Positions 1 through 9,787 of a stretch of DNA of 9,787 nucleotides are shown one piece after another. How positions within the stretch are numbered: position 1 is the first letter of the stretch; each line of letters opens with the position of its first letter. Under the pieces are notes generated by a model. That model did no database searches. It was not told the origin of the DNA and saw only the letters and a program-made list of their open reading frames with translations. The DNA is taken from IMG/VR virus record IMGVR_UViG_2565956716_000003; one strand, written 5' to 3'. The position numbers were made by a program, and so were the translations under genes. The DNA comes from a virus. Lineage: Duplodnaviria > Heunggongvirae > Uroviricota > Caudoviricetes.

Positions 1-1236
1 CTATGATAACCGCGCATTCAACATGGCTATCTGTTCGTCGTTCATGTCATCAATCCACATACCGTAAATTTCATACACCATCTGCGCAGTTTCATGCCCC
101 ATTTGGCTGGCTATAAATGCCGGGTTCGCTCCTGCCGTCAACAGCCAGCAGGCAAAAGTATGCCGCGTATGGTACGGATTACGGCGGCGAATACCAGCAC
201 GTTTTACTGCTGCATTCCACCTTGCCCCCAAACTGCTTACCGAGTAATAAGGTTTTTGTTTTCCGTTACACTCCCTGGGCATGAAAACAAAATGCAGTTT
301 TTGCTTTTCGGTTCTGCCGTACTCCCGATGATAAAAGGTGATTTCGCTTTTGCGATGATGCCCGGTCAGTTTGTATTGCTCCTTCAGTGCTTCAAGAGCA
401 GGCTGCAGTAGTGTTACTGTCCGGATCCCGGCATTTGTTTTTGGGGGACCGAACATATCAAGTATCGTCAGGTTTCTTCTGACATTCACTATTCCCTTTT
501 CGAGATCCACATCCTCCCACGCCAGAGCTGCCAGTTCCCCGTGACGAAGTCCTGAGTAAACTGCAAATTTCCACATGTTCTGGCTCTGTCCTTTTTCACT
601 TTCCATTAATGCATTGAATTCTGTTTTAGATAACGGATCAGGCTTTATTCTGTTTCGCTGTAATTTTTTTACTCCTTCAAATGGTTTGGTTGATATAAAT
701 CCCGACTGATACGCAAAACGTAACAGCGAACAGAGCAGGGCGATATAGTTATCAACTGTGCGCACGGTTCTTCCTTTTTTGTTGGATCTTGGATTATCCA
801 GGTAAAGCGTTTCTCCATGCAGCAGTTCATTCCGGTAGTTTAAGATATCGCTATAACGAATATGTGATATCAGGGTACTTTCACAAATTATTATTCTGAG
901 TGTTTTTAATTGTGATTTCGTTTTCTTCATTGTGTTTGTTGTTAACTCTGTCTCTTTAATTTTCGTCCAGATATCACAAAGCTCTCCGAACGTTTTTATG
1001 ACTCTCGTTGTCACCATTTTTGCCCCAGTGCTGGACTGGGGAAAACGTCTTAAATACTCAAATTCACCGGAGTTTATTTCATGAACTATCAGCGCTCTTA
1101 AATTTCCGGCCTTTTTAATATTACTGTTTGTAATCTCCCAGCCTTTTAATGTTTCCCGACATCGTTTTCCTCGAAACATGAACCAGATGCGAATGTATCT
1201 ACCTCTAATCTCGACACCTGTTGGTAATTTAGACAT
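1..1236 (-). CDS. intR: Tyrosine-family site-specific integrase, Rac-type prophage (411 aa)
   Basis: Complete ORF: ATG at 1236-1234 (cat on + strand), TAG stop at 3-1. Translation contains an integrase box I-like segment (GLRHGELAALAWEDVD) and a C-terminal HTRHTFACW segment typical of tyrosine recombinases. Matches my recollection of E. coli Rac IntR in sequence and length. Start lies 1 nt from the stop of the upstream excisionase ORF. Confidence 0.93.
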   Translation of the reverse strand: MSKLPTGVEIRGRYIRIWFMFRGKRCRETLKGWEITNSNIKKAGNLRALIVHEINSGEFEYLRRFPQSSTGAKMVTTRVIKTFGELCDIWTKIKETELTTNTMKKTKSQLKTLRIIICESTLISHIRYSDILNYRNELLHGETLYLDNPRSNKKGRTVRTVDNYIALLCSLLRFAYQSGFISTKPFEGVKKLQRNRIKPDPLSKTEFNALMESEKGQSQNMWKFAVYSGLRHGELAALAWEDVDLEKGIVNVRRNLTILDMFGPPKTNAGIRTVTLLQPALEALKEQYKLTGHHRKSEITFYHREYGRTEKQKLHFVFMPRECNGKQKPYYSVSSLGARWNAAVKRAGIRRRNPYHTRHTFACWLLTAGANPAFIASQMGHETAQMVYEIYGMWIDDMNDEQIAMLNARLS

Positions 1237-1237
1237 A

Positions 1238-1453
1238 TCATGAGTCTTTGATAAACTGATTTATCTTTGGATAGTTGTACCAGATAATCCCTCGTTTGCT
1301 GTCTGGCTTACCTAAAGGAGATACTCGTTTGAAGTGGAAGCCCTCCACCCAACAGTTCTGGCGGTATGCTTCAATTTGTCTGGCCCCCAGACCAGTGCGA
1401 AGCATCAGGCCGTATTCAACCATCCACTCTTCATTAAAGATTACTTGTGCCAT
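1238..1453 (-). CDS. xisR: Excisionase-like small DNA-binding protein (71 aa)
   Basis: ORF track gives 1238..1477; I place the start at the internal ATG (cat at 1451-1453), giving [10 protein letters not shown]..., which matches the recalled 71-aa YdaQ/XisR. Stop TGA at 1240-1238 abuts the integrase start, the usual xis-int arrangement. Confidence 0.8.
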
Positions 1454-1552
1454 CGCATCACCTCTGGCAGGCGCCAATGTTAGACTGAAATTGACGCCCG
1501 ATGTTGATTATTAATAATCAGCTATGAAGTTTTAATTTGAATACAATGCAAT

Positions 1553-1741
1553 TCACGAGGACTGAAGTTTCTCGCAATTAAAATTTATCAGTTTTACTTT
1601 CTGCTCTCTGGAAACGCCTGCTTCTTTTTTACCTGAGAGCATTTTTTCGCATTCTGATTTCGTTAGTTTAGATTTTGAATATCTTGTCCAGTTAGTAGGA
1701 GTGCTACCTTCCTTTTCAATAGTGGCGGTAATTTTATACAT
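1553..1741 (-). CDS. ydaC: Small Rac prophage protein of unknown function (YdaC-like, DUF1187)
   Basis: ORF track gives 1553..1813. The internal ATG at 1741-1739 is preceded on the minus strand by a strong SD (GGAGGTG, about 5 nt spacing), so I prefer that start (MYKITATIEKEG...). Start overlaps the 3' end of ralR by 8 nt. Identity from recalled YdaC sequence; function unknown. Confidence 0.65.
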   Translation of the reverse strand: MYKITATIEKEGSTPTNWTRYSKSKLTKSECEKMLSGKKEAGVSREQKVKLINFNCEKLQSS

Positions 1742-1928
1742 GAACACCTCCGTTATTATTTCCAGTGGTTCGTTTATTCCATCTTTCGAGTGCTTCTTTT
1801 TCACTTCCACCATAACCGGTTCGGGATTCGCATCCGTTACACTTCGCTCGGTAATATCCTGAAATGACTTTCACCGTTACTGATGGACAACCACAAAATG
1901 GACATGGTTTAACATTGTCATATCTCAT
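1734..1928 (-). CDS. ralR: Restriction-alleviation protein / type I toxin RalR (Lar), 64 aa
   Basis: In-frame ATG at 1928-1926 gives MRYDNVKPCPFCGCPSVTVKVISGYYRAKCNGCESRTGYGGSEKEALERWNKRTTGNNNGGVHV, a 64-aa product with a CPFCGC...CNGC Cys4 zinc-ribbon signature matching recalled RalR/Lar. TAA stop at 1736-1734. Two further in-frame ATGs upstream (1940, 1967) are possible alternative starts. Confidence 0.85.
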   Translation of the reverse strand: MRYDNVKPCPFCGCPSVTVKVISGYYRAKCNGCESRTGYGGSEKEALERWNKRTTGNNNGGVHV

Positions 1929-1984
1929 AATTTTTCTCATAAAAAATATTTCAAGTTGGCGGTGCATTACACCGCCAGGCTGAA

Positions 1985-2794
1985 TTATTCCTCTGAATTA
2001 TCGATTACACTGTATTCCCCGGTTAATACAGAGGAATCTGCAGGATCGATTGTCAGTGGTTCCTTTTCATCCATTGATACTGCACGCTGGATCTCAATTG
2101 ATACGGGCAGATATTTGAACAGGCGACGAATAGCCGTTTTCTTTGCCATTTCTTCCCAGTGAGTTACCCACGGCCCGTTATTACCAGCTTTACTCAGGCT
2201 GCGCACCAGCTCAATCTGTTTGCGCGTCATAACTTCAAACTGAGTACCTCCGTCTTTCAGCCTTGCGACAGCATAGACGTGGGTAACCGGGGCATCTTCG
2301 TTTTCTCCCGGGCGGTGTATTAACTTTTTATCAAGGCCAAATTCGAAGCTAAACTCGTCACCTTCACGGACAACACGGGCTGACAGGCTGGCGATTTGAC
2401 CAGAACGGCGAGCCAGATCAATCATGCCGCGATAGCCAATGATTAGCTGAACGTTCTTTTTACCGCTCTTTTCGTTTTTATTACCAAAAGGCAGTAAATA
2501 TGCATGACCGAGGGCGCTACCTGGCTCAAGTCCGAGCTGTGAACACTGTACGATCGCACTGACAAAACTCATAGTGTCACAGTTTCCTAACGCCGGAACT
2601 TTACGAATTTCTGTGGTGGCGATACGGATCATACGTTCAGCCGTCATATGGCGTGGAAGAGCTGCTGCCAGTTGCTCTTTCATTGATGGCTGGTTAATAA
2701 AACTAATCACGTCGCTATTTTTAACTGCTGCTGGTGCACGGTTTCCCTGAGTTTTTTGCAGATCGGCTTTTGCGATTGGTGGTTGCTTAGTCAT
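1985..2794 (-). CDS. recT: RecT single-strand annealing recombinase (269 aa)
   Basis: ORF track gives 1985..2851; start placed at ATG 2794-2792 ([16 protein letters not shown]...), giving the 269-aa length recalled for RecT. AAGGA SD lies just upstream on the minus strand. Start overlaps the recE stop (2789-2787) by 8 nt, the classic recE-recT coupling. Confidence 0.93.
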
Positions 2795-4760
2795 TTGCAT
2801 ATTCCTTAGCCCAGCGGGGCAGTGATAATGTCTTAATAGCTGGCCATTCATCGGTATTCAGGCAGTCAGACAGGGTTCGCAGATTGCGGTGATATTCCTG
2901 TTGACCTGCCAGTTTTGCTTCTTCGCCCATCATGAAAATTTCAACCGGATAACGTCCGCATTCAATAGTTGTGCTGGCAACCAGAAAAACGAAAGTTGGC
3001 TGCACTCCAAACTGTGCTTCATAACCGTCACTGTAGAATGCATCCTGAACGTGATAGCGGTAGTCGTAATAAGCGGTTTTGAATCGTTGAATATCCGCCG
3101 TAGTTTTCACGTCCATGATCCAGTGAAATTCAGGGATAATTTTGTCCGGACGGCACCGACACAAAATTCCTGTTTCAGGATCTTCCCAGTAAATTGATGA
3201 TTCAGCGTGTCCGGCGCTTTCAACAAGCCATTGCCCCAGCGGCAAAGCCATAACGCTTTGATACATGAGTTCAATTTTCCGGCCTTCTTCCGCAGTGATA
3301 ACTGTTTTTCCTGTGCTTGCGCATTCCATCAGAAACGCTTTCTCTTCTTCTTTTCCGGCGTTTGTACGGCGGTTAAATTCAGGTGCTACGATAAAGCGGT
3401 TACTGAATTCTTCCGGTTCAAGTACCCGGCAGTGGAAAGCGGTTCCTAAATCGAGCGTTTTTGTCTTTGTGGTGTCCACGGGGGCATTTTTACGCCACAA
3501 ATATAGTGCCGGAGTATCAGCAATGTCATCGAGCTGAGACTTACTGACACCGGGACCCGCGTGGTAATTCTCATTCGAAATTCCGTAATAAATACCTGGC
3601 TCTATGTCTTCTACGATTACGGGATCTGCGACTTCGCCAGTTTCATCACTGCAATCGCGATGCGGATCGCTGCCAGCATTCTCATTATGCGGATGTTCAG
3701 CGCCTTCCATTTCCTCCGGATCATTTTCCTTAGCTTCAACCTGACTCTCTTCATCGAATGTTTCCTGGTATGTTGCGTCGCCCATCACCGCACCACAGTC
3801 AGGGCAGTTATCCCCGCCAGTCTGGCCGCAGGCATTGCAGGCTATTTCCGGTTCCTGTTGCACTACTGGCTCAGGTTGATTCATATCCGGGCTGGTTTTT
3901 TCCGTTTCTGGCTGGTTCTGGTACACACAATCGCGAGTCTGGATCCCCTTTACCCATTTCGGATCGTTCGGGTCGCTAATTCCGTCAACAAATTCACCAC
4001 GTGATGCAGCAAGCAATTTATCGGCATCGACAGGATCTTTTGATGGAATGTTTTTCCGGGCTTCATGGAGTTCTGCCCGCAGTTCCTGATATTTCGCATC
4101 AACAGAATTTACCTGTGACTGAGCATCCAGCGGCTGCGTGTCCTGATGATGTTCAGTTGCGTCCGGTTCCATTGTTTCAGCCTCTCCCTGTTCAACTGCC
4201 GTTGTTCCAGATGGTTGCGGTTTTTCTTCATCATCCTGTTTTCCTTCTTCTGTTACTCGCTGCGGCATCGGGGCAGAGGAGCGACCGCAGGCAATATCCA
4301 CGATTTCCGGATCAGGGTTGGCATGATCGGTTTCAGTCAGTACTTTGTTCAGATATTCAGTGACGTGCGCGGGGATGACCTCGATCCCAATTGGTGCTTC
4401 TTTTACGGACGCAACCACGATGGCGCGGGAATAATCCAGCCCGCCAGGCATGGTGATGAATTTGTCGCGGAAAACAGAAAAGGGCGGTTTATTTTCAGCG
4501 ATAATTTCCTCAATGCGTTTAGCGTGTGCCGGATGAAGGTTATAGATGTCCAGATCCATTGAACGGGCCAGTACGCCAGTGGCTACGTCGCGCGCCAGTG
4601 ACGTCAGATCGTGTACGAAACCTTCGCCGCGATCGGTGAGGTTTCCGCCGCCAGCATTAGCACCGGAAGCCGTGCGAGTGATGTGTGAAACACGATTACC
4701 CTTCATCCACTCTTTTGTCAGCAGTCCTCGATCGGTATAGTCAGCGTTCAGGTATAGCAT
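2787..4760 (-). CDS. recE: Exonuclease VIII RecE, 5'-truncated: C-terminal 657 codons, nuclease domain complete
   Basis: 657-aa ORF from ATG 4760-4758 to TAA 2789-2787, with an in-frame TGA only 4 codons upstream (4772-4770). Reference RecE is recalled as 866 aa, so about 209 N-terminal codons are absent. Recalled active-site residues D748/D759/K761 map with a 209 offset onto D539/D550/K552 of this ORF (codons 3146-3144, 3113-3111, 3107-3105), which I verified are GAC/GAC/AAA on the minus strand. No SD before the ATG at 4760, so expression is uncertain. Confidence 0.85.
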
Positions 4761-5194
4761 CAGTGTTAATCACTGGCTCAAGTGGTAACGATGGTCTGGA
4801 GGGTGTCAGCTACATACCATACAAAGATATTGTTGGTGTATGGACTGTATGTCACGGGCATACAGGAAAAGACATCATGCTCGGTAAAACGTATACCAAA
4901 GCAGAATGCAAGGCACTCTTGAATAAAGACCTTGCCACTGTCGCCAGACAAATTAACCCGTACATCAAAGTCGATATACCGGAAACAACGCGCGGCGCTC
5001 TTTACTCATTCGTTTACAACGTGGGTGCTGGCAATTTCAGAACATCGACGCTTCTTCGCAAAATAAACCAGGGCGATATCAAAGGCGCATGTGATCAGCT
5101 ACGTCGCTGGACATATGCTGGCGGTAAGCAATGGAAAGGTCTCATGACTCGTCGTGAGATTGAGCGTGAAATCTGTTTGTGGGGTCAGCAATGA
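4754..5194 (+). pseudogene. P21/RrrD-type phage lysozyme (endolysin) lacking the N-terminal signal-anchor-release segment
   Basis: Translation from about 4754 reads [40 protein letters not shown]...[13 protein letters not shown], matching the recalled RrrD/R21 lysozyme from about residue 20 onward. The catalytic E-x8-D-x5-T triad is present. No ATG precedes it: the ORF track starts at GTG 4685 inside antisense recE sequence, and the first in-frame ATG (4877) is downstream of the triad. Stop TGA 5192-5194 overlaps the Rz start (ATGA). Confidence 0.8.
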
Positions 5195-5655
5195 ACAGAG
5201 TAACCGCGATTATCTCCGCTCTGGTTATCTGCATCATCGTCTGCCTGTCATGGGCTGTTAATCATTACCGTGATAACGCCATTACCTATAAAGCCCAGCG
5301 CGACAAAAATGCCAGAGAACTGAAGCTGGCGAACGCGGCAATTACTGACATGCAGATGCGTCAGCGTGATGTTGCTGCGCTCGATGCAAAATACACGAAG
5401 GAGTTAGCTGATGCGAAAGCTGAAAATGATGCTCTGCGTGATGATGTTGCCGCTGGTCGTCGTCGGTTGCACATCAAAGCAGTCTGTCAGTCAGTGCGTG
5501 AAGCCACCACCGCCTCCGGCGTGGATAATGCAGCATCCCCCCGACTGGCAGACACCGCTGAACGGGATTATTTCACCCTCCGGGAACGACTGGTAATGAT
5601 GCAGGCCCAACTTGAAGGAGCTCAGCAATACATAACCGAACAGTGTTTAAAGTAA
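5191..5655 (+). CDS. rzpR: Rz-type inner-membrane spanin (i-spanin), 154 aa
   Basis: ATG at 5191 overlapping the lysozyme stop; the ORF track start at 5179 is a GTG. N-terminal hydrophobic segment ([20 protein letters not shown]) followed by a long charged, coiled-coil-like region, typical of Rz. TAA at 5653-5655. Appears intact here. Confidence 0.88.
5411..5596 (+). CDS. rzoR: Rz1-type outer-membrane lipoprotein spanin (o-spanin), 61 aa, nested in the +1 frame of Rz
   Basis: ATG at 5411 entirely inside the Rz ORF in a different frame. Product [20 protein letters not shown]... has a lipoprotein signal peptide with lipobox-like VVGC, then a proline-rich PPPPP segment; the embedded Rz1 architecture is well established for lambdoid phages. 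Confidence 0.88.
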
Positions 5656-5792
5656 AATCTTAACTACAATATGATTTATTTTGATGATTGTTTCATAAGG
5701 AACAGTGAAGTAAGATCTAAGAGGAGTTAAATTTTATACAGTATAATCATAATATTGCAGCAAGGTGGTTATAATTGAAAGAATATTTAGAT

Positions 5793-7262
5793 ATGAATAC
5801 ATCTCATGTAAGAGTTGTTACTCATATGTGTGGGTTCCTGGTTTGGCTCTATAGTCTTTCAATGTTGCCACCAATGGTTGTAGCATTGTTTTATAAAGAA
5901 AAAAGCCTGTTCGTTTTCTTTATAACCTTCGTTATATTTTTTTGCATTGGTGGCGGAGCGTGGTATACAACTAAGAAATCTGGCATTCAATTACGTACCC
6001 GTGATGGGTTTATTATAATTGTAATGTTTTGGATTTTGTTTTCTGTTATTAGTGCATTCCCTTTATGGATTGACTCAGAACTTAATTTAACGTTCATTGA
6101 TGCTCTTTTTGAAGGGGTTTCTGGAATAACAACAACAGGAGCAACTGTAATTGATGATGTTAGTTCATTACCTCGGGCATATTTGTACTATCGGTCACAG
6201 TTAAATTTTATAGGTGGTTTAGGAGTTATTGTTCTGGCGGTTGCTGTATTGCCATTATTGGGTATTGGTGGTGCAAAGCTTTATCAGTCAGAAATGCCGG
6301 GGCCATTTAAGGATGACAAACTCACTCCCCGCCTGGCCGATACGTCACGGACACTGTGGATAACTTATTCTTTATTAGGTATTGCTTGTATTGTCTGTTA
6401 TAGACTTGCAGGAATGCCTTTGTTTGATGCTATTTGTCACGGGATTTCCACAGTTTCGCTTGGTGGTTTCTCAACTCATAGCGAGAGTATCGGATATTTT
6501 AATAACTATTTGGTTGAGCTGGTGGCTGGTTCTTTTTCCCTGCTATCGGCTTTCAACTTCACTCTTTGGTATATTGTTATTAGCAGGAAAACGATAAAAC
6601 CTTTAATCAGAGATATTGAACTTCGTTTCTTTCTGTTAATAGCCTTAGTGGTGATCATTGTTACCTCTTTCCAGGTCTGGCATATAGGTATGTATGACTT
6701 GCATGGAAGTTTTATTCATTCGTTTTTTCTTGCCAGCTCCATGCTCACTGATAATGGTTTAGCTACGCAAGATTATGCAAACTGGCCCACGCACACGATA
6801 GTGTTTTTGCTGTTGTCAAGTTTCTTTGGGGGATGTATAGGTTCAACTTGTGGTGGAATTAAGTCACTTCGATTTCTTATACTTTTCAAACAAAGCAAAC
6901 ACGAGATAAATCAGCTTTCTCATCCCAGAGCGTTGTTGAGTGTAAATGTAGGAGGGAAGATAGTTACAGATCGTGTAATGAGGTCTGTATGGAGTTTCTT
7001 TTTTCTTTATACTCTCTTCACGGTGTTTTTTATACTGGTGTTAAATGGTATGGGATATGATTTTCTTACATCATTTGCAACAGTGGCTGCATGTATTAAT
7101 AATATGGGATTAGGTTTTGGGGCTACTGCATCGTCATTCGGAGTGCTTAATGACATTGCAAAATATTTAATGTGCATAGCTATGATTCTTGGTCGCCTTG
7201 AAATTTATCCTGTTATTATATTGTTTTCAGGTTTTTTTTTGGCGCTCCTAATATATGGCTGA
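5793..7262 (+). CDS. trkG: Trk-system potassium uptake membrane protein TrkG (TrkH family)
   Basis: Long multi-pass membrane ORF, markedly more AT-rich than its neighbours. Translation MNTSHVRVVTHMCGFLVWLYSL... matches recalled TrkG. I place the start at ATG 5793; the ORF track start at 5775 is a TTG preceded by AAGGTGG, so it is a possible alternative. Stop TGA 7260-7262. Confidence 0.9.
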   Translation: MNTSHVRVVTHMCGFLVWLYSLSMLPPMVVALFYKEKSLFVFFITFVIFFCIGGGAWYTTKKSGIQLRTRDGFIIIVMFWILFSVISAFPLWIDSELNLTFIDALFEGVSGITTTGATVIDDVSSLPRAYLYYRSQLNFIGGLGVIVLAVAVLPLLGIGGAKLYQSEMPGPFKDDKLTPRLADTSRTLWITYSLLGIACIVCYRLAGMPLFDAICHGISTVSLGGFSTHSESIGYFNNYLVELVAGSFSLLSAFNFTLWYIVISRKTIKPLIRDIELRFFLLIALVVIIVTSFQVWHIGMYDLHGSFIHSFFLASSMLTDNGLATQDYANWPTHTIVFLLLSSFFGGCIGSTCGGIKSLRFLILFKQSKHEINQLSHPRALLSVNVGGKIVTDRVMRSVWSFFFLYTLFTVFFILVLNGMGYDFLTSFATVAACINNMGLGFGATASSFGVLNDIAKYLMCIAMILGRLEIYPVIILFSGFFLALLIYG

Positions 7263-7337
7263 TTTATAATTGTGAGTTTAATATTATATTGACTCACTCA
7301 TTGATCCAATACCTAACTTTACCAGCAACACCTCCGC

Positions 7338-7369
7338 CCCCAGTAGCACTGGCTGCTGGGGTGCGTTTT
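7338..7369 (+). terminator. Putative intrinsic terminator downstream of trkG
   Basis: Inverted repeat ccccagtagc (7338-7347) / gctgctgggg (7352-7361) forms a 10-bp GC-rich stem (one G-U pair) with a 4-nt loop, followed by tgcg and a T-rich run (ttttatt). The 4-nt spacer before the T tract is atypical, hence low confidence. Confidence 0.3.
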
Positions 7370-7388
7370 ATTCATAAAGCAAGGCTGT

Positions 7389-8177
7389 ATGAGCGAGAAA
7401 TTAAAGATAGTCTATCGCCCATTACAAGAATTGTCACCGTATGCGCACAACGCCAGGACGCACAGTACTGAGCAGGTGGCACAACTGGTAGAAAGTATTA
7501 AGCAATTCGGCTGGACTAATCCGATGCTGATTGACGAAAAGGGCGAAATTATTGCGGGTCACGGTCGTGTTATGGCGGCTGAAATGCTCAAAATGGATTC
7601 TGTTCCGGTCATTGTTCTGTCTGGCCTGACGGATGAGCAGAAAAAGGCGTACCGCTTGGCAGATAATCGCCTACCGATGAATGCTGGCTGGGATGAAGAT
7701 CTGTTGCGGATGGAGCTGTCGGTCCTAATCAATGCTGATTTTGATGTCTCCCTGACAGGCTTCGGCCCGACAGAAATTGATGAACTGTTGACGGATGTTT
7801 TGCCCGGTACAGGAAATAAGGAGGAGCCGTATACGACGAAAATTGATACGCCTGTTTATGAGCCGTCGGGCGGTAAACCGGATATCAGTGAACTGTACGA
7901 CGATACGAAAACTCAGGAGCTGATCAGCCGGATACGTTCGGCGTCCCTTGATCCTGATATTGAGAAATTCCTCCTGTGTGCGGCAGAACGTCACACGGTG
8001 TTTAATTTCAGCAGAATTGCGGACTATTACGCTCATGCCCCCGCTGAAATTCAGTGCCTTTTCGAGGAGTCGGCGCTGGTGATCATTGATTATCAGCAGG
8101 CTATTGAAAATGGATTTGTCCGAATGACGCAGCGCATGGTGGAGATCATGCATGGCGGGGAGGAGGAATATGCGTGA
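7389..8177 (+). CDS. ynaK: ParB-like nuclease-domain protein (ParB/Srx fold), 262 aa
   Basis: ATG at 7389, TGA at 8175-8177. The N-terminal region has a ParB/sulfiredoxin-family signature (EIIAGHGRVMAAEML, compare the ParB GERRxRAA box). The N-terminus matches my recollection of Rac YnaK. Confidence 0.75.
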   Translation: MSEKLKIVYRPLQELSPYAHNARTHSTEQVAQLVESIKQFGWTNPMLIDEKGEIIAGHGRVMAAEMLKMDSVPVIVLSGLTDEQKKAYRLADNRLPMNAGWDEDLLRMELSVLINADFDVSLTGFGPTEIDELLTDVLPGTGNKEEPYTTKIDTPVYEPSGGKPDISELYDDTKTQELISRIRSASLDPDIEKFLLCAAERHTVFNFSRIADYYAHAPAEIQCLFEESALVIIDYQQAIENGFVRMTQRMVEIMHGGEEEYA

Positions 8178-8183
8178 TGATTT

Positions 8184-9206
8184 TTGCGCCTTTATTCTGA
8201 CTCACGGGCGACCGGAAAAAGTTCTGACTTACCGGACGTTGCGTCGTGCTGGCTAGCCGCGCTGACAGACAATACGCAGGGGGCAGCAGGTCTTGAGTTA
8301 TACGAGGTGTATAACAACGGATATCCAACAGCGTATGGAAATATCATTCACCTGAAAGGGATGTCAGCCGTTGGCGAAGGTGAGTTACTCATCGGCTGGA
8401 GTGGTACAAGCGGTGCTCATGCTCCGGCATTTATTCGTTCACGACGGGATACGACCGACGCAAACTGGTCGCCGTGGGCGCAGCTTTACACCTCGGCTCA
8501 TCCTCCTGCAGAGTTTTATCCAGTCGGTGCACCAATCCCGTGGCCATCAGATACCGTTCCGTCAGGTTATGCCCTGATGCAGGGGCAGACTTTTGACAAA
8601 TCTGCATACCCGAAACTTGCAGCAGCTTATCCGTCAGGCGTGATCCCTGATATGCGTGGCTGGACGATTAAGGGCAAGCCCGCCAGTGGTCGTGCCGTAT
8701 TGTCTCAGGAACAGGACGGCATTAAATCGCACACCCACAGCGCCAGCGCATCCAGTACGGATTTGGGGACGAAAACCACATCGTCGTTTGATTACGGCAC
8801 TAAATCCACGAATAACACCGGTGCGCATACCCATAGTTTAAGTGGCAGCACGAATGCAGCTGGTAATCACAGCCATAGAGATGGCCGTCGATTTAACCCC
8901 AGTGTTTTTAAAGATACTTATCAATATGGTTATACAAGTTCCGGTACAAATACTTGGGGTGTACAAGGTTCAGTAGGTATGTCTACGGGGTGGTTAGCTA
9001 ATACCAGTACAGATGGTAATCATAGCCACTCACTGTCCGGCACAGCAGCATCTGCAGGTACACACGCACATACTGTCGGTATTGGTGCTCATACGCACTC
9101 CGTTGCGATTGGCTCACATGGACACACCATCACCGTTAACGCTGCTGGTAACGCGGAAAACACCGTCAAAAACATCGCATTTAACTATATTGTGAGGCTT
9201 GCATAA
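8184..9206 (+). pseudogene. stfR: Side tail fibre StfR, C-terminal fragment (340 codons) with HxH repeat domain
   Basis: The ORF begins at a TTG directly after ynaK with no credible start. Translation ends ...[22 protein letters not shown] and carries seven G-x-H-x-H motifs, matching recalled lambdoid side tail fibre C-termini; the full protein is over 1000 aa. Stop TAA 9204-9206 overlaps the tfaR ATG (TAATG). Confidence 0.8.
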
Positions 9207-9787
9207 TGGCATTCAGAATGAGTGAACAAGCACGGACCATAAAAATTTATAATCTGCTGGCCGGAACTAATGAATTTATTGGTGAAGGTGACGCATATAT
9301 TCCGCCTCATACAGGTCTGCCAGCAAACAGTACCGATATTGCACCACCAGATATTCCTGCTGGCTTTGTGGCTGTTTTCAACAGTGATGAGGCATCGTGG
9401 CATCTCGTTGAAGACCATCGGGGTAAAACGGTTTATGACGTAGCGTCAGGGGACGCGTTATTTATTTCTGAACTCGGTCCGTTACCGGAAAATGTTACCT
9501 GGTTATCGCCGGAAGGGGAGTTTCAGAAGTGGAACGGCACAGCCTGGGTGAAGGATACGGAAGCAGAAAAACTGTTCCGGATCCGGGAGGCGGAAGAAAC
9601 AAAAAACAGCCTGATGCAGGTAGCCAGTGAGCATATTGCGCCGCTTCAGGATGCTGCAGATCTGAAAATCGCAACGGAGGAAGAAACCTCGTTGCTGGAA
9701 GCCTGGAAAAAGTATCGGGTGCTGCTAAACCGTGTGGACACTTCCGTAGCACCAGATATCGAGTGGCCAGCTGCACCTATAGGGTAA
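9206..9787 (+). CDS. tfaR: Tail fibre assembly protein (chaperone), 193 aa
   Basis: ATG at 9206 overlapping the stf stop; TAA at 9785-9787. Translation [53 protein letters not shown]... matches recalled TfaR-family proteins; the stf-tfa pairing is conserved. Confidence 0.9.

Follow-up and report, generated by a model that had tools for sequence, protein, structure and literature searches.

The repressor gene racR of the Rac prophage is essential: it represses the toxic genes ydaS and ydaT, and its loss alone is lethal in Escherichia coli K-12 (PMC5700373). Among 154 genomes, ydaS was never found without racR (Krishnamurthi et al. 2017, PMC5700373). In more than half of the strains, half of Rac is gone, with the toxin genes usually lost and recE and trkG best conserved (PMC5700373). 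Excision of Rac is promoted by YdaS (bioRxiv 10.64898/2026.09.06.749655). The lysozyme gene of fuller Rac prophages, rrrD, also has well-described counterparts, since its product in HCP17S3_I4 is near-identical over all 165 residues to phage 21 R and DLP12 RrrD (PDB 3HDE, 3HDF and 4ZPU). The SAR domain of such proteins provides for Sec export, membrane tethering and the refolding-dependent activation of R21 (PMC6116005).

The window analysed here, a 9,787-nt stretch from IMG/VR record IMGVR_UViG_2565956716_000003, was found to belong to a Rac element that occupies the same integration site as Rac of K-12 and has the same att repeat. A 43-bp direct repeat, identical at 40 of 43 positions, showed that the element had integrated at the 5' end of ttcA; attL is located within ttcA, immediately left of the window (positions 11900 to 11942 of locus L001), and attR adjoins uspF, as it does in K-12, about 6 kb to the right of the window (27760 to 27802). 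The left arm, with the gene order intR-xisR-(rcbA-like)-ralR/RalA-recT-recE, was 99.5% identical to that of K-12 over 4,755 nt (window positions 1 to 4755), and positions 5211 to 7642 matched the K-12 segment Rz'-trkG-ynaK. The trkG cargo and tfaR are common to both elements, and internal deletions have left each of them a defective remnant. The deletions themselves differ. K-12 retains full-length recE, racC, kilR, sieB, racR, ydaS/T and ydaU/V/W and has neither essD nor rrrD, its own separate deletion ending in Rz at the equivalent of window position 5211. The window's element, in contrast, has lost the whole early and immunity region but retains Rz/Rz1 in full and the greater part of rrrD. 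Between its tfaR and attR, where K-12 has pinR-ynaE, lies sitABCD.

The transition between the two arms was resolved to the base by blastn against reference loci and by three-way alignments. Homology to recE on the minus strand runs from window position 2787 to 4755 and ends there, whereas homology to rrrD-type lysozyme on the plus strand begins at 4753. Positions 1 to 4755 are thus the Rac left arm, from intR to recE, and positions 4753 to 9787 the arm with the lysis genes, trkG and the tail fibre. The two share the 3-bp microhomology TAT at 4753 to 4755, which lies inside the interval 4745 to 4775 where the preliminary description had placed a deletion junction. Direct reading also bore out the other local features named there, namely a minus-strand ATG at 4760 (CAT at 4758 to 4760 on the plus strand) with an in-frame TGA four codons upstream and a plus-strand frame reading IASVLITG from 4754. 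The observation was therefore correct to the base, and every element of it was confirmed. As it is an alignment result (E = 0) and not a statistical pattern, chance is of no concern.

Because Rac of K-12 has no lysozyme gene, fuller Rac prophages (HCP17S3_I4 and MSHS 472) were required for the right side of the junction. The alignment to K-12 that had been proposed as a check placed the breakpoint in recE but left the right side undefined, so K-12 was discarded as an intact two-sided reference. VE-T9 was likewise discarded: although the lysis cassette and late genes are present in it, IS1 has removed its early region. The distance between recE and the lysozyme gene was 13.2 kb in MSHS 472 and 21.8 kb in HCP17S3_I4, in agreement with the expectation that many kilobases separate these genes in fuller Rac prophages.

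E. coli MSHS 472 (NZ_CP041302.1) carries an allele very similar to the presumed parent. It differed from the window by 1 mismatch over 4,755 nt on the left and by none over 5,035 nt on the right, and the extended flanks (99.98 to 100% identical) differed from those of the window's lineage by 3 SNPs in 16,755 nt and none in 6,842 nt, about 23.6 kb altogether. Alleles of intR, the DUF1187 gene, ralR, Rz, trkG, tfaR and the neighbouring MFS gene were identical. The sole structural difference was one contiguous block of 13,161 bp, from the 5' part of recE to the 5' part of rrrD, which is still present in MSHS 472 and has TAT at both ends. This comparison upholds the earlier proposal that a single deletion was involved. 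The repeat occupies positions 20954 to 20956 and 34115 to 34117 of the MSHS 472 locus (L019), and one copy is kept at the junction. The search for microhomology by alignment to a fuller Rac, which had also been suggested, thus yielded TAT, and TAT is all that the two parental breakpoints share, with no long repeat. No IS element was annotated within the parental MSHS 472 interval, no IS remnant was found at the junction and no att site was found at the breakpoints. With equal base frequencies, an overlap of at least 3 bp is expected at a single junction with a probability of about 0.05, only weakly above chance; a role for TAT is therefore suggestive, and causality of the microhomology is unprovable from this one junction.

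According to the annotation of the MSHS 472 record, the 13,161-bp segment begins at its left end with recE codons 1 to 211, followed by racC, ydaE, kilR, sieB, ydaF and a ydaG-like gene. It continues with an immunity module (repressor-like and cro-like HTH genes and ydaT), the replication genes ydaU/ydaV, further early genes, queH, and ninB-like and HNH genes, and ends on the right with a Q-like antiterminator gene, genes for tRNA-Thr and tRNA-Gly, the holin gene essD and rrrD codons 1 to 19. PHROGs matches identified the antiterminator, the holin, the repressor-like and cro-like regulators and NinB, and both tRNAs (n = 2) were called by ARAGORN. Of the genes that had been predicted to lie in the missing interval, racC, kilR, sieB, a repressor-like gene, ydaU/ydaV, the Q-like antiterminator and the holin were all present, along with ydaE, the cro-like gene and ydaT.

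What remains of recE is its 3' part (2787 to 4755, minus strand), annotated by PGAP as a pseudogene. It has lost the first 632 of 2,601 nt, including the native start codon and codons 1 to 211, and retains residues 212 to 866 and the stop codon. The PD-(D/E)XK nuclease domain is intact, as judged from the match of PDB 3H4R to residues 396 to 657 of the open reading frame (E = 2e-180) and from a match to PF12684. PF06630, the Exonuc_VIII N-terminal domain, which covers residues 2 to 178 of full-length RecE, is absent from the window's open reading frame. The ATG at 4758 to 4760 (minus strand) is fortuitous, lying antisense to rrrD. The frame that begins there has 657 codons, in which methionine and leucine precede RecE residues 212 to 866, the ATG and first two codons being antisense rrrD; the upstream in-frame TGA is at 4770 to 4772 (TCA on the plus strand), and no Shine-Dalgarno-like sequence was found within 30 nt upstream of the ATG. 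Farther left are recT (1985 to 2794, minus strand), which overlaps the 3' end of recE, the toxin gene ralR (1734 to 1928, minus strand), its antitoxin sRNA RalA (1557 to 1735, plus strand; Rfam, 220.7 bits), and intact xisR (1238 to 1453) and intR (1 to 1236), both on the minus strand.

On the right, rrrD has lost the first 56 of 498 nt, leaving residues 20 to 165 of a phage 21 R-type SAR endolysin (4753 to 5194, plus strand). Compared with phage 21 R and DLP12 RrrD, the remnant keeps the GH24 domain (PF00959, 155 bits) and, in its translation, the catalytic triad E35-X8-D44-X5-T50 (native numbering), but has neither residues 1 to 19, which form most of the SAR membrane domain, nor a cognate holin. 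The best 19-residue Kyte-Doolittle hydropathy falls from 2.24 (residues 8 to 26 of native RrrD) to 0.73 in the remnant, and the uncharged N-terminal stretch shortens from 23 to 13 residues. The cognate (pin)holin gene essD precedes rrrD in VE-T9, HCP17S3_I4 and MSHS 472 and is deleted here. With most of the signal-anchor gone, the remnant is predicted not to be a functional member of the SAR endolysins, and its product would be neither exportable nor activatable. PGAP nevertheless calls an intact "lysozyme" from a TTG start at 4715 to 5194 on the plus strand (RefSeq WP_044501964.1), yet the first 13 codons of this chimeric frame are antisense recE and the export signal is gone, which makes it an annotation trap.

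Downstream on the plus strand, the spanin gene Rz (5191 to 5655) and the embedded Rz1 (5411 to 5596), both intact, have been left without the late promoter, the Q-like antiterminator and the holin. Directly to the right of the lysis remnant follows the retained potassium transporter gene trkG (5793 to 7262, plus strand), preceded by a promoter-like site at 5646 to 5675. An older, separate deletion junction was located at 8251 to 8255, where the gene downstream of ynaK is fused to the 3' end of the tail-fibre gene; terminase, capsid and tail genes are missing, and the same late-gene deletion is present in MSHS 472.

As a result of the 13,161-bp loss, recE'-recT and rrrD'-Rz-Rz1 now converge head to head, both without their native promoters, the early-left promoter region native to recE being inside the deleted segment. 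Three sigma-70-like sites were counted around the junction, against 2.8 ± 1.6 in shuffled sequences, and the scan for promoters and terminators around the junction returned nothing above the shuffled background. No new promoter is therefore claimed. Both remnant pairs, recE'/recT and rrrD'/Rz, are most likely silent, judging by the lack of recognisable promoters; antisense or read-through transcription may still occur.

The exact 111-nt junction was present in at least five further independent NCBI assemblies. The six accessions that carry it comprise one complete circular chromosome and five drafts; their contigs range from 116 kb to 4.87 Mb, and the flanks are the same throughout. The junction-bearing 18AR0366 differed from the window by 2 mismatches and 1 indel, and the closest draft, GCA_016984255.1, by 1 mismatch. 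Among complete E. coli genomes, one of 5,426 had the junction; the chimeric lysozyme protein had index entries in 31 blocks of the collection. Among 50,697 records of a phage collection, 126 matched the 751-nt junction query, none of them with a place covering at least 80% of it.

These data bear on two readings under which there would have been no deletion at all. Lambdoid prophage repeats often break or mis-join short-read assemblies, and the median genome has rrrD-like genes at 2 places, so that a collapse or mis-join of two prophage regions had to be considered. Recovery of the same 111-nt junction with the same flanks in six assemblies, however, and the position of both breakpoints in unique sequence, where 3 shared bp offer no collapse-prone repeat, render an assembly artefact extremely improbable and settle this concern of the preliminary description. 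An equally negligible probability attaches to a native arrangement in which recE of such phages starts at the ATG at 4760 beside a lysozyme gene. The 657-codon frame does exist, and PGAP does call the lysozyme frame intact, but the 866-codon recE runs collinearly beyond the breakpoint in K-12, CX04, HCP17S3_I4 and MSHS 472, all other lysozyme matches extend to a full 165-codon rrrD with essD before it, and the ATG with its first two codons is antisense rrrD. The arrangement itself was found in none of the 126 matching phage records and in only one complete E. coli genome.

Two further readings accept a deletion but differ as to its history or effect. Rac is known for piecemeal decay, many different partial Rac structures exist, and this very element bears the older deletion near 8251 to 8255; smaller losses, for example of kilR, the immunity region or lysis control, could thus have accumulated, with the junction as the last of them. 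This is improbable, although less so than the other alternatives, as the entire interval is still present in a relative whose flanks differ by 3 SNPs in 23.6 kb, no intermediate was found, and the lethality of racR removal without ydaS/ydaT in K-12 limits the viable stepwise paths (PMC5700373). A single step is still not strictly provable, because two rapid deletions, the last overwriting the first, would look alike. The junction might also have been an activating change. It is known that sbcA deletions in K-12 switch on the RecET recombination pathway, and N-terminally truncated RecE is active with RecT in recombineering work, an activity reportedly linked to the 2012 study of Fu et al., which PMC11610992 cites. 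Here, residues 212 to 866 hold the whole crystallised nuclease domain, recT is intact and a new in-frame ATG is available, so that the nuclease part of RecE and recT could have come under a new promoter or start. What lies upstream of recE', however, is the antisense strand of rrrD-Rz-trkG, with sigma-70-like sites no commoner than in shuffles, a terminator-like hairpin on the same strand (4919 to 4903), no Shine-Dalgarno-like motif before the ATG and the native early-left promoter region deleted. No active same-orientation promoter or open reading frame upstream of recE could thus be predicted, and an sbcA-like activation appears very unlikely.

We consider it highly probable that the junction at 4753 to 4755 is the scar of a single, IS-independent, TAT microhomology-associated deletion of 13,161 bp in a ttcA-integrated Rac cryptic prophage, and that the lesion represents neutral-to-beneficial decay. 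The loss would be recent and confined to one clonal E. coli lineage. The parent prophage had already lost its virion genes; since the older late-gene deletion is common to MSHS 472, the event did not kill a live phage. With the repressor, operators and cro/cII analogues gone, the remnant would no longer be derepressible, and the YdaS-driven regulated excision known from K-12 would be lost even though intR, xisR, attL and attR survive. The deletion would have freed the host of the lethal threats posed by KilR, by YdaS/YdaT and by lysis triggered through the holin, while recT, the RecE nuclease domain and trkG are kept. The suggestion that the prophage can neither induce nor kill would hold only in part, since the toxin RalR with its antitoxin RalA, Rz/Rz1, intR, xisR, attL and attR are all still there. 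As K-12 does not survive the loss of racR alone, viable deletions would also have to remove ydaS/ydaT, and an event of this kind would therefore be large and span the whole immunity region. The rarity of the junction (one complete genome in 5,426) fits neutral drift in one clone equally well as benefit, and any benefit is putative.

We then compared this junction with junction classes in other strains, enumerated with window positions 3800 to 5700 as the query. At least five other deletions that join recE to the lysis cassette were found in E. coli, in PCP06171/CFSAN061772, in BE2-5 and at least nine others, in 2EC1, in JNQH497/498 and in EC09. As in the window, a 5'-truncated recE adjoins a lysis remnant just upstream of trkG, and both of the further IS-free classes likewise have 3-bp overlaps. 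They differ in the extent of the recE loss (420, 719, 1,130, 999 or 1,251 nt), in their right ends, which lie elsewhere in rrrD or in Rz, and, in three classes, in the presence of an IS element (ISEc52 or IS1) at the junction. Since the breakpoints differ, these are separate alleles that arose in independent events. With the present junction included, a 5'-truncated recE has been joined to a lysis remnant just upstream of trkG at least six times independently in E. coli. In each of the six, recT, trkG and the nuclease domain of RecE survive, and kilR, racR-ydaST, the holin and the Q-like antiterminator have been purged. It is conceivable, if rather doubtful, that this recurrence amounts to convergent domestication through a "safe deletion corridor", provided that selection and not the design of the search underlies it. 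Such a corridor would be bounded by the lethality of losing racR alone, by an N-terminal third of RecE that can be dispensed with and by a requirement that the trkG promoter be spared. Taken together, the independent junctions could show which part of RecE is dispensable in nature, and MSHS 472 and the 18AR0366 lineage, as a near-isogenic pair, offer a natural experiment for measuring how much fitness the immunity, kil and lysis module of Rac costs.

The junction is a case of ordinary prophage decay, real and cleanly resolved, and its scientific weight is small. It documents at base resolution how a cryptic prophage probably shed its dangerous genes in one step and kept the cargo useful to the host, which fits the published picture of Rac. 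That Rac loses its toxin genes and retains recE and trkG has already been published, and the junction adds one more example. The study of Krishnamurthi et al. (2017, PMC5700373) presents a matrix of gene presence and absence that resolves no junctions, breakpoints or near-isogenic pairs; the junction described here is a concrete instance of the decay pattern reported there.

The window, 9,787 nt long, is what is left of a Rac cryptic prophage of Escherichia coli after heavy reduction, integrated beside ttcA; of the E. coli and Shigella strains that have been sequenced, ~69% carry Rac (PMC6379469). The nearest complete genome was 18AR0366 (NZ_CM132283.1), with two mismatches and one indel relative to the window, and the nearest sequence of all was a draft contig with one mismatch (GCA_016984255.1). 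We converted the RefSeq annotation of 18AR0366 to window coordinates. The minus strand carries intR (1-1236), xisR (1238-1453), recT (1985-2794) and a recE pseudogene labelled "missing N-terminus" (2787-4754); a DUF1187 gene and ralR lie between xisR and recT in annotation order. On the plus strand are a "lysozyme" gene (4715-5194; WP_044501964.1), Rz (5191-5655) and tfaR (9206-9787). To the right of Rz come trkG, a ParB/Srx gene (ynaK) and a tail-fibre fragment. Rfam matches above the gathering score were the RalA antitoxin sRNA opposite ralR (1557-1735, plus strand, 220.7 bits) and "IS009" within tfaR (9549-9747, plus strand, 214.3 bits). The att sites, left arm and trkG of a Rac-type prophage were each sought and found, with attL at 11900-11942 and attR at 27760-27802 of the 18AR0366-lineage locus (L001), and intR and xisR are also present. 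Beyond the right end of the window (L001 21984-27802), between tfaR and attR and thus within the att-bounded element, are a gene for an MFS transporter of the Bcr/CflA type and the iron/manganese transporter operon sitABCD; in K-12 Rac, pinR-ynaE-ynaM occupies their place.

Two small variants were seen. At the 3' end of trkG (7224-7232), the window and GCA_016984255.1 have T9, as opposed to T8 in 18AR0366, MSHS 472 and most drafts, so that TrkG ends in ...FFLALLIYG* rather than ...FFWRS* (489 versus 485 residues); this could be a true homopolymer frameshift or a sequencing error. Codon 156 of recT (position 2329) is AAA (Lys) in the same two sequences and GAA (Glu) in MSHS 472 as well as in 18AR0366 and four drafts, the remaining five loci examined that carry the junction, so by this comparison RecT E156K is a sub-lineage-specific change.

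The preliminary description placed the end of recE directly against the start of a lysozyme gene, and alignment bore this out. In blastn against reference loci, recE homology ends at 4755 and rrrD-type lysozyme homology begins at 4753; a three-way alignment showed a sharp parent-to-parent switch across a common TAT (4753-4755), a 3-bp microhomology. The first 632 of 2,601 nt of recE and the first 56 of 498 nt of rrrD are missing. Direct reading confirmed the minus-strand ATG starting at 4760, the in-frame TGA four codons upstream of it (plus-strand TCA, 4770-4772), and IASVLITG encoded in the plus-strand frame from 4754.

Such a junction might reflect an assembly artefact or a native arrangement of recE next to a lysozyme gene. 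The assembly collection indexes the chimeric lysozyme in 31 of its blocks, and all six loci fetched, a complete chromosome and five drafts of different accessions, had the identical 111-nt junction and like flanks, which rules out an artefact. Nor is the arrangement native; the junction occurred in 1 of 5,426 complete E. coli genomes, and none of the 126 phage records matching a 751-nt junction query had a place covering at least 80% of it. The lysozyme matches listed among phage records start exactly at window 4753.

Fuller prophages were compared for the ancestral order. K-12 Rac runs from full-length recE through racC, ydaE, kilR, sieB, ydaF, ydaG, racR, ydaS and ydaT to ydaU/V/W. It has no lysozyme gene and carries a different internal deletion of its own, joining ydaW' to the Rz remnant rzpR' (14201 of the K-12 locus L007, equivalent to window 5211). 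Because that deletion ends within Rz, K-12 cannot serve as the intact reference on the right, and the textbook Rac itself lacks holin, lysozyme and late regulator. The Rac of HCP17S3_I4 is much fuller. Its recE and rrrD lie 21.8 kb apart, separated by a racC-like gene, ydaE, kilR, IS1, sieB, a repressor/cro/ydaT module, replication genes, a cargo island, relBE-hokD, DUF1367/DUF1364/DUF1133 genes and the holin gene essD.

The nearest thing to a before-and-after pair obtainable from databases is MSHS 472 (NZ_CP041302.1; locus L019) and the window's lineage. The two have the same alleles of IntR, the DUF1187 protein, RalR, Rz, TrkG, TfaR and the neighbouring MFS transporter, and a common truncated ynaK/tail-fibre arrangement. 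Window 1-4755 matches L019 16202-20956 with one mismatch in 4,755 nt, and window 4753-9787 matches L019 34115-39148 (5,035 nt) with no mismatches and one homopolymer indel. The extended flanks of 18AR0366 differ from MSHS 472 by three SNPs over 16,755 nt on the left and none over 6,842 nt on the right. Structurally, the two differ only by a contiguous 13,161-bp block that MSHS 472 has, with TAT at each end; the window keeps a single copy of the TAT. From the recE side, the block holds recE codons 1-211, racC, ydaE, kilR, sieB, ydaF and a ydaG-like gene; an immunity module of repressor-like and cro-like HTH genes and ydaT; then ydaU (frameshifted), ydaV, and DUF1627, DUF977 and hypothetical genes. 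It also holds queH (epoxyqueuosine reductase; L019 28642-29310), a DUF1971 gene, NinB-like and HNH genes, a Q-like antiterminator (phrog_753, E = 3e-79), phage genes for tRNA-Thr(UGU) and tRNA-Gly(UCC) (L019 32913-33066) and, on the rrrD side, essD and rrrD codons 1-19. Thus queH and both tRNA genes were lost along with the phage control genes. No IS is annotated within the block in the MSHS 472 record, and no IS remnant was found at the junction. This near-isogenic pair supports a single, IS-independent deletion. The preliminary description had proposed one deletion of many kilobases that removed racC, kilR, sieB, the repressor, replication genes, late regulator and holin; all are in the block, and both its observation and its interpretation proved correct, with minor qualifiers.

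The lesion has the features tested for an IS-independent microhomology deletion. An overlap of at least 3 bp has a calculated probability of ~0.05 at equal base frequencies, so at one junction it is weak mechanistic evidence. We searched for other junction classes with window 3800-5700 as the query and inspected the matches. At least five further classes, independent deletions that join 5'-truncated recE to a lysis remnant upstream of trkG, were found in other complete E. coli genomes (L002 6465-6467, L014 2367-2369, and L015 to L018). The window's class (18AR0366 lineage) lacks 632 nt of recE and resumes directly at rrrD nt 57. Two others are also IS-free: one in PCP06171 and CFSAN061772 (420 nt lost, direct to rrrD nt 165) and one in BE2-5 and at least nine others, including 23CRST025 (719 nt lost, direct to inside Rz). 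The remaining three have an IS at the junction: ISEc52, then rrrD nt 100, in 2EC1 (1,130 nt lost); IS1, then the last 207 nt of the lysozyme gene, in JNQH497 and JNQH498 (999 nt lost); and an IS1 fragment, then the last ~198 nt of rrrD, in EC09 (1,251 nt lost). The nuclease domain, recT and trkG survive in all six classes. The apparent deletion "corridor" is a lead that may be an ascertainment effect, since the query could reveal a deletion only if its left end fell within the first ~1.6 kb of recE and its right end within the lysis cassette. Both other IS-free junctions also show 3-bp overlaps; three of three would arise by chance at roughly 1e-4 if the events were independent, which favours microhomology-associated illegitimate recombination or replication slippage.

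The recE ORF encodes M-L- and then RecE residues 212-866; across these 655 retained residues it differs from K-12 RecE at only three. Residues 396-657 of the ORF align with the nuclease domain solved by crystallography (PDB 3H4R; E = 2e-180), and Pfam detected a PDDEXK domain. The same search found no PF06630 (Exonuc_VIII), which at the N-terminus of full-length RecE spans residues 2-178, leaving the remnant short of the N-terminal domain of a RecE. The new ATG sits in antisense rrrD sequence, with no Shine-Dalgarno-like motif within 30 nt upstream. The Rac rrrD of HCP17S3_I4 hardly differs from RrrD and phage 21 R (4ZPU, 3HDE). These are SAR endolysins, whose N-terminal SAR domain serves Sec export and membrane tethering and, after release, takes part in enzyme-activating refolding (PMC6116005). 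The window's remnant (residues 20-165), in contrast, keeps the E35-X8-D44-X5-T50 triad and has lost SAR residues 1-19. Its best 19-residue hydropathy falls from 2.24 in the native product to 0.73, and the uncharged N-terminal stretch from 23 residues to 13; neither of the defining features, SAR domain and holin, was found. PGAP calls an intact 159-codon "lysozyme" from TTG at 4715, the first 13 codons of which are antisense recE; the same annotation treats neighbouring recE as a pseudogene. This chimeric ORF is probably better annotated as a pseudogene too.

The remnants now lie head to head. Both native promoters are deleted and sigma-70-like sites in 4400-6000 are at the shuffled level (3 versus 2.8 ± 1.6), so recE'-recT and rrrD'-Rz-Rz1 are predicted to be silent; activation of recE of the sbcA type fails on orientation and promoter evidence. 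The element had been described as able neither to induce nor to kill. This would hold in that the repressor/YdaS module, kilR and holin are gone. It is too strong in that RalR and the RalA antitoxin RNA are retained, so "cannot kill" is not strictly true, and intR, xisR, attL and attR are all present, so excision may be structurally possible. In K-12, YdaS promotes regulated excision upon RacR depletion (bioRxiv 10.64898/2026.09.06.749655); these ydaS/racR functions are absent from the window's element.

A second deletion junction lies at about 8251-8255, where sequence collinear with the gene that follows ynaK in fuller Rac prophages gives way to the 3' portion of a tail-fibre gene; the terminase, capsid and tail genes are lost. 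This deletion is common to MSHS 472 and is therefore older than that at recE::rrrD. The parent was already unable to make virions, yet had KilR, the YdaS/YdaT module and a holin-endolysin pair, which are liabilities without phage benefit. In K-12, racR cannot be deleted unless ydaS/ydaT are also removed, and ydaS without racR was found in 0 of 154 genomes (Krishnamurthi et al., PMC5700373). A viable deletion of the repressor would then also have to take the divergent toxic operon. The deletion seen here took both and reached further, to kilR in one direction and to the late regulator and holin in the other, and this constraint could explain its size. The same study found Rac toxin genes missing from most strains and recE and trkG the best conserved. 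The recE::rrrD allele itself appears undescribed; the kind of lesion is well known, and its biology is that of ordinary prophage decay, matching the published piecemeal decay of Rac, in which toxin genes are lost and recE and trkG retained (PMC5700373).
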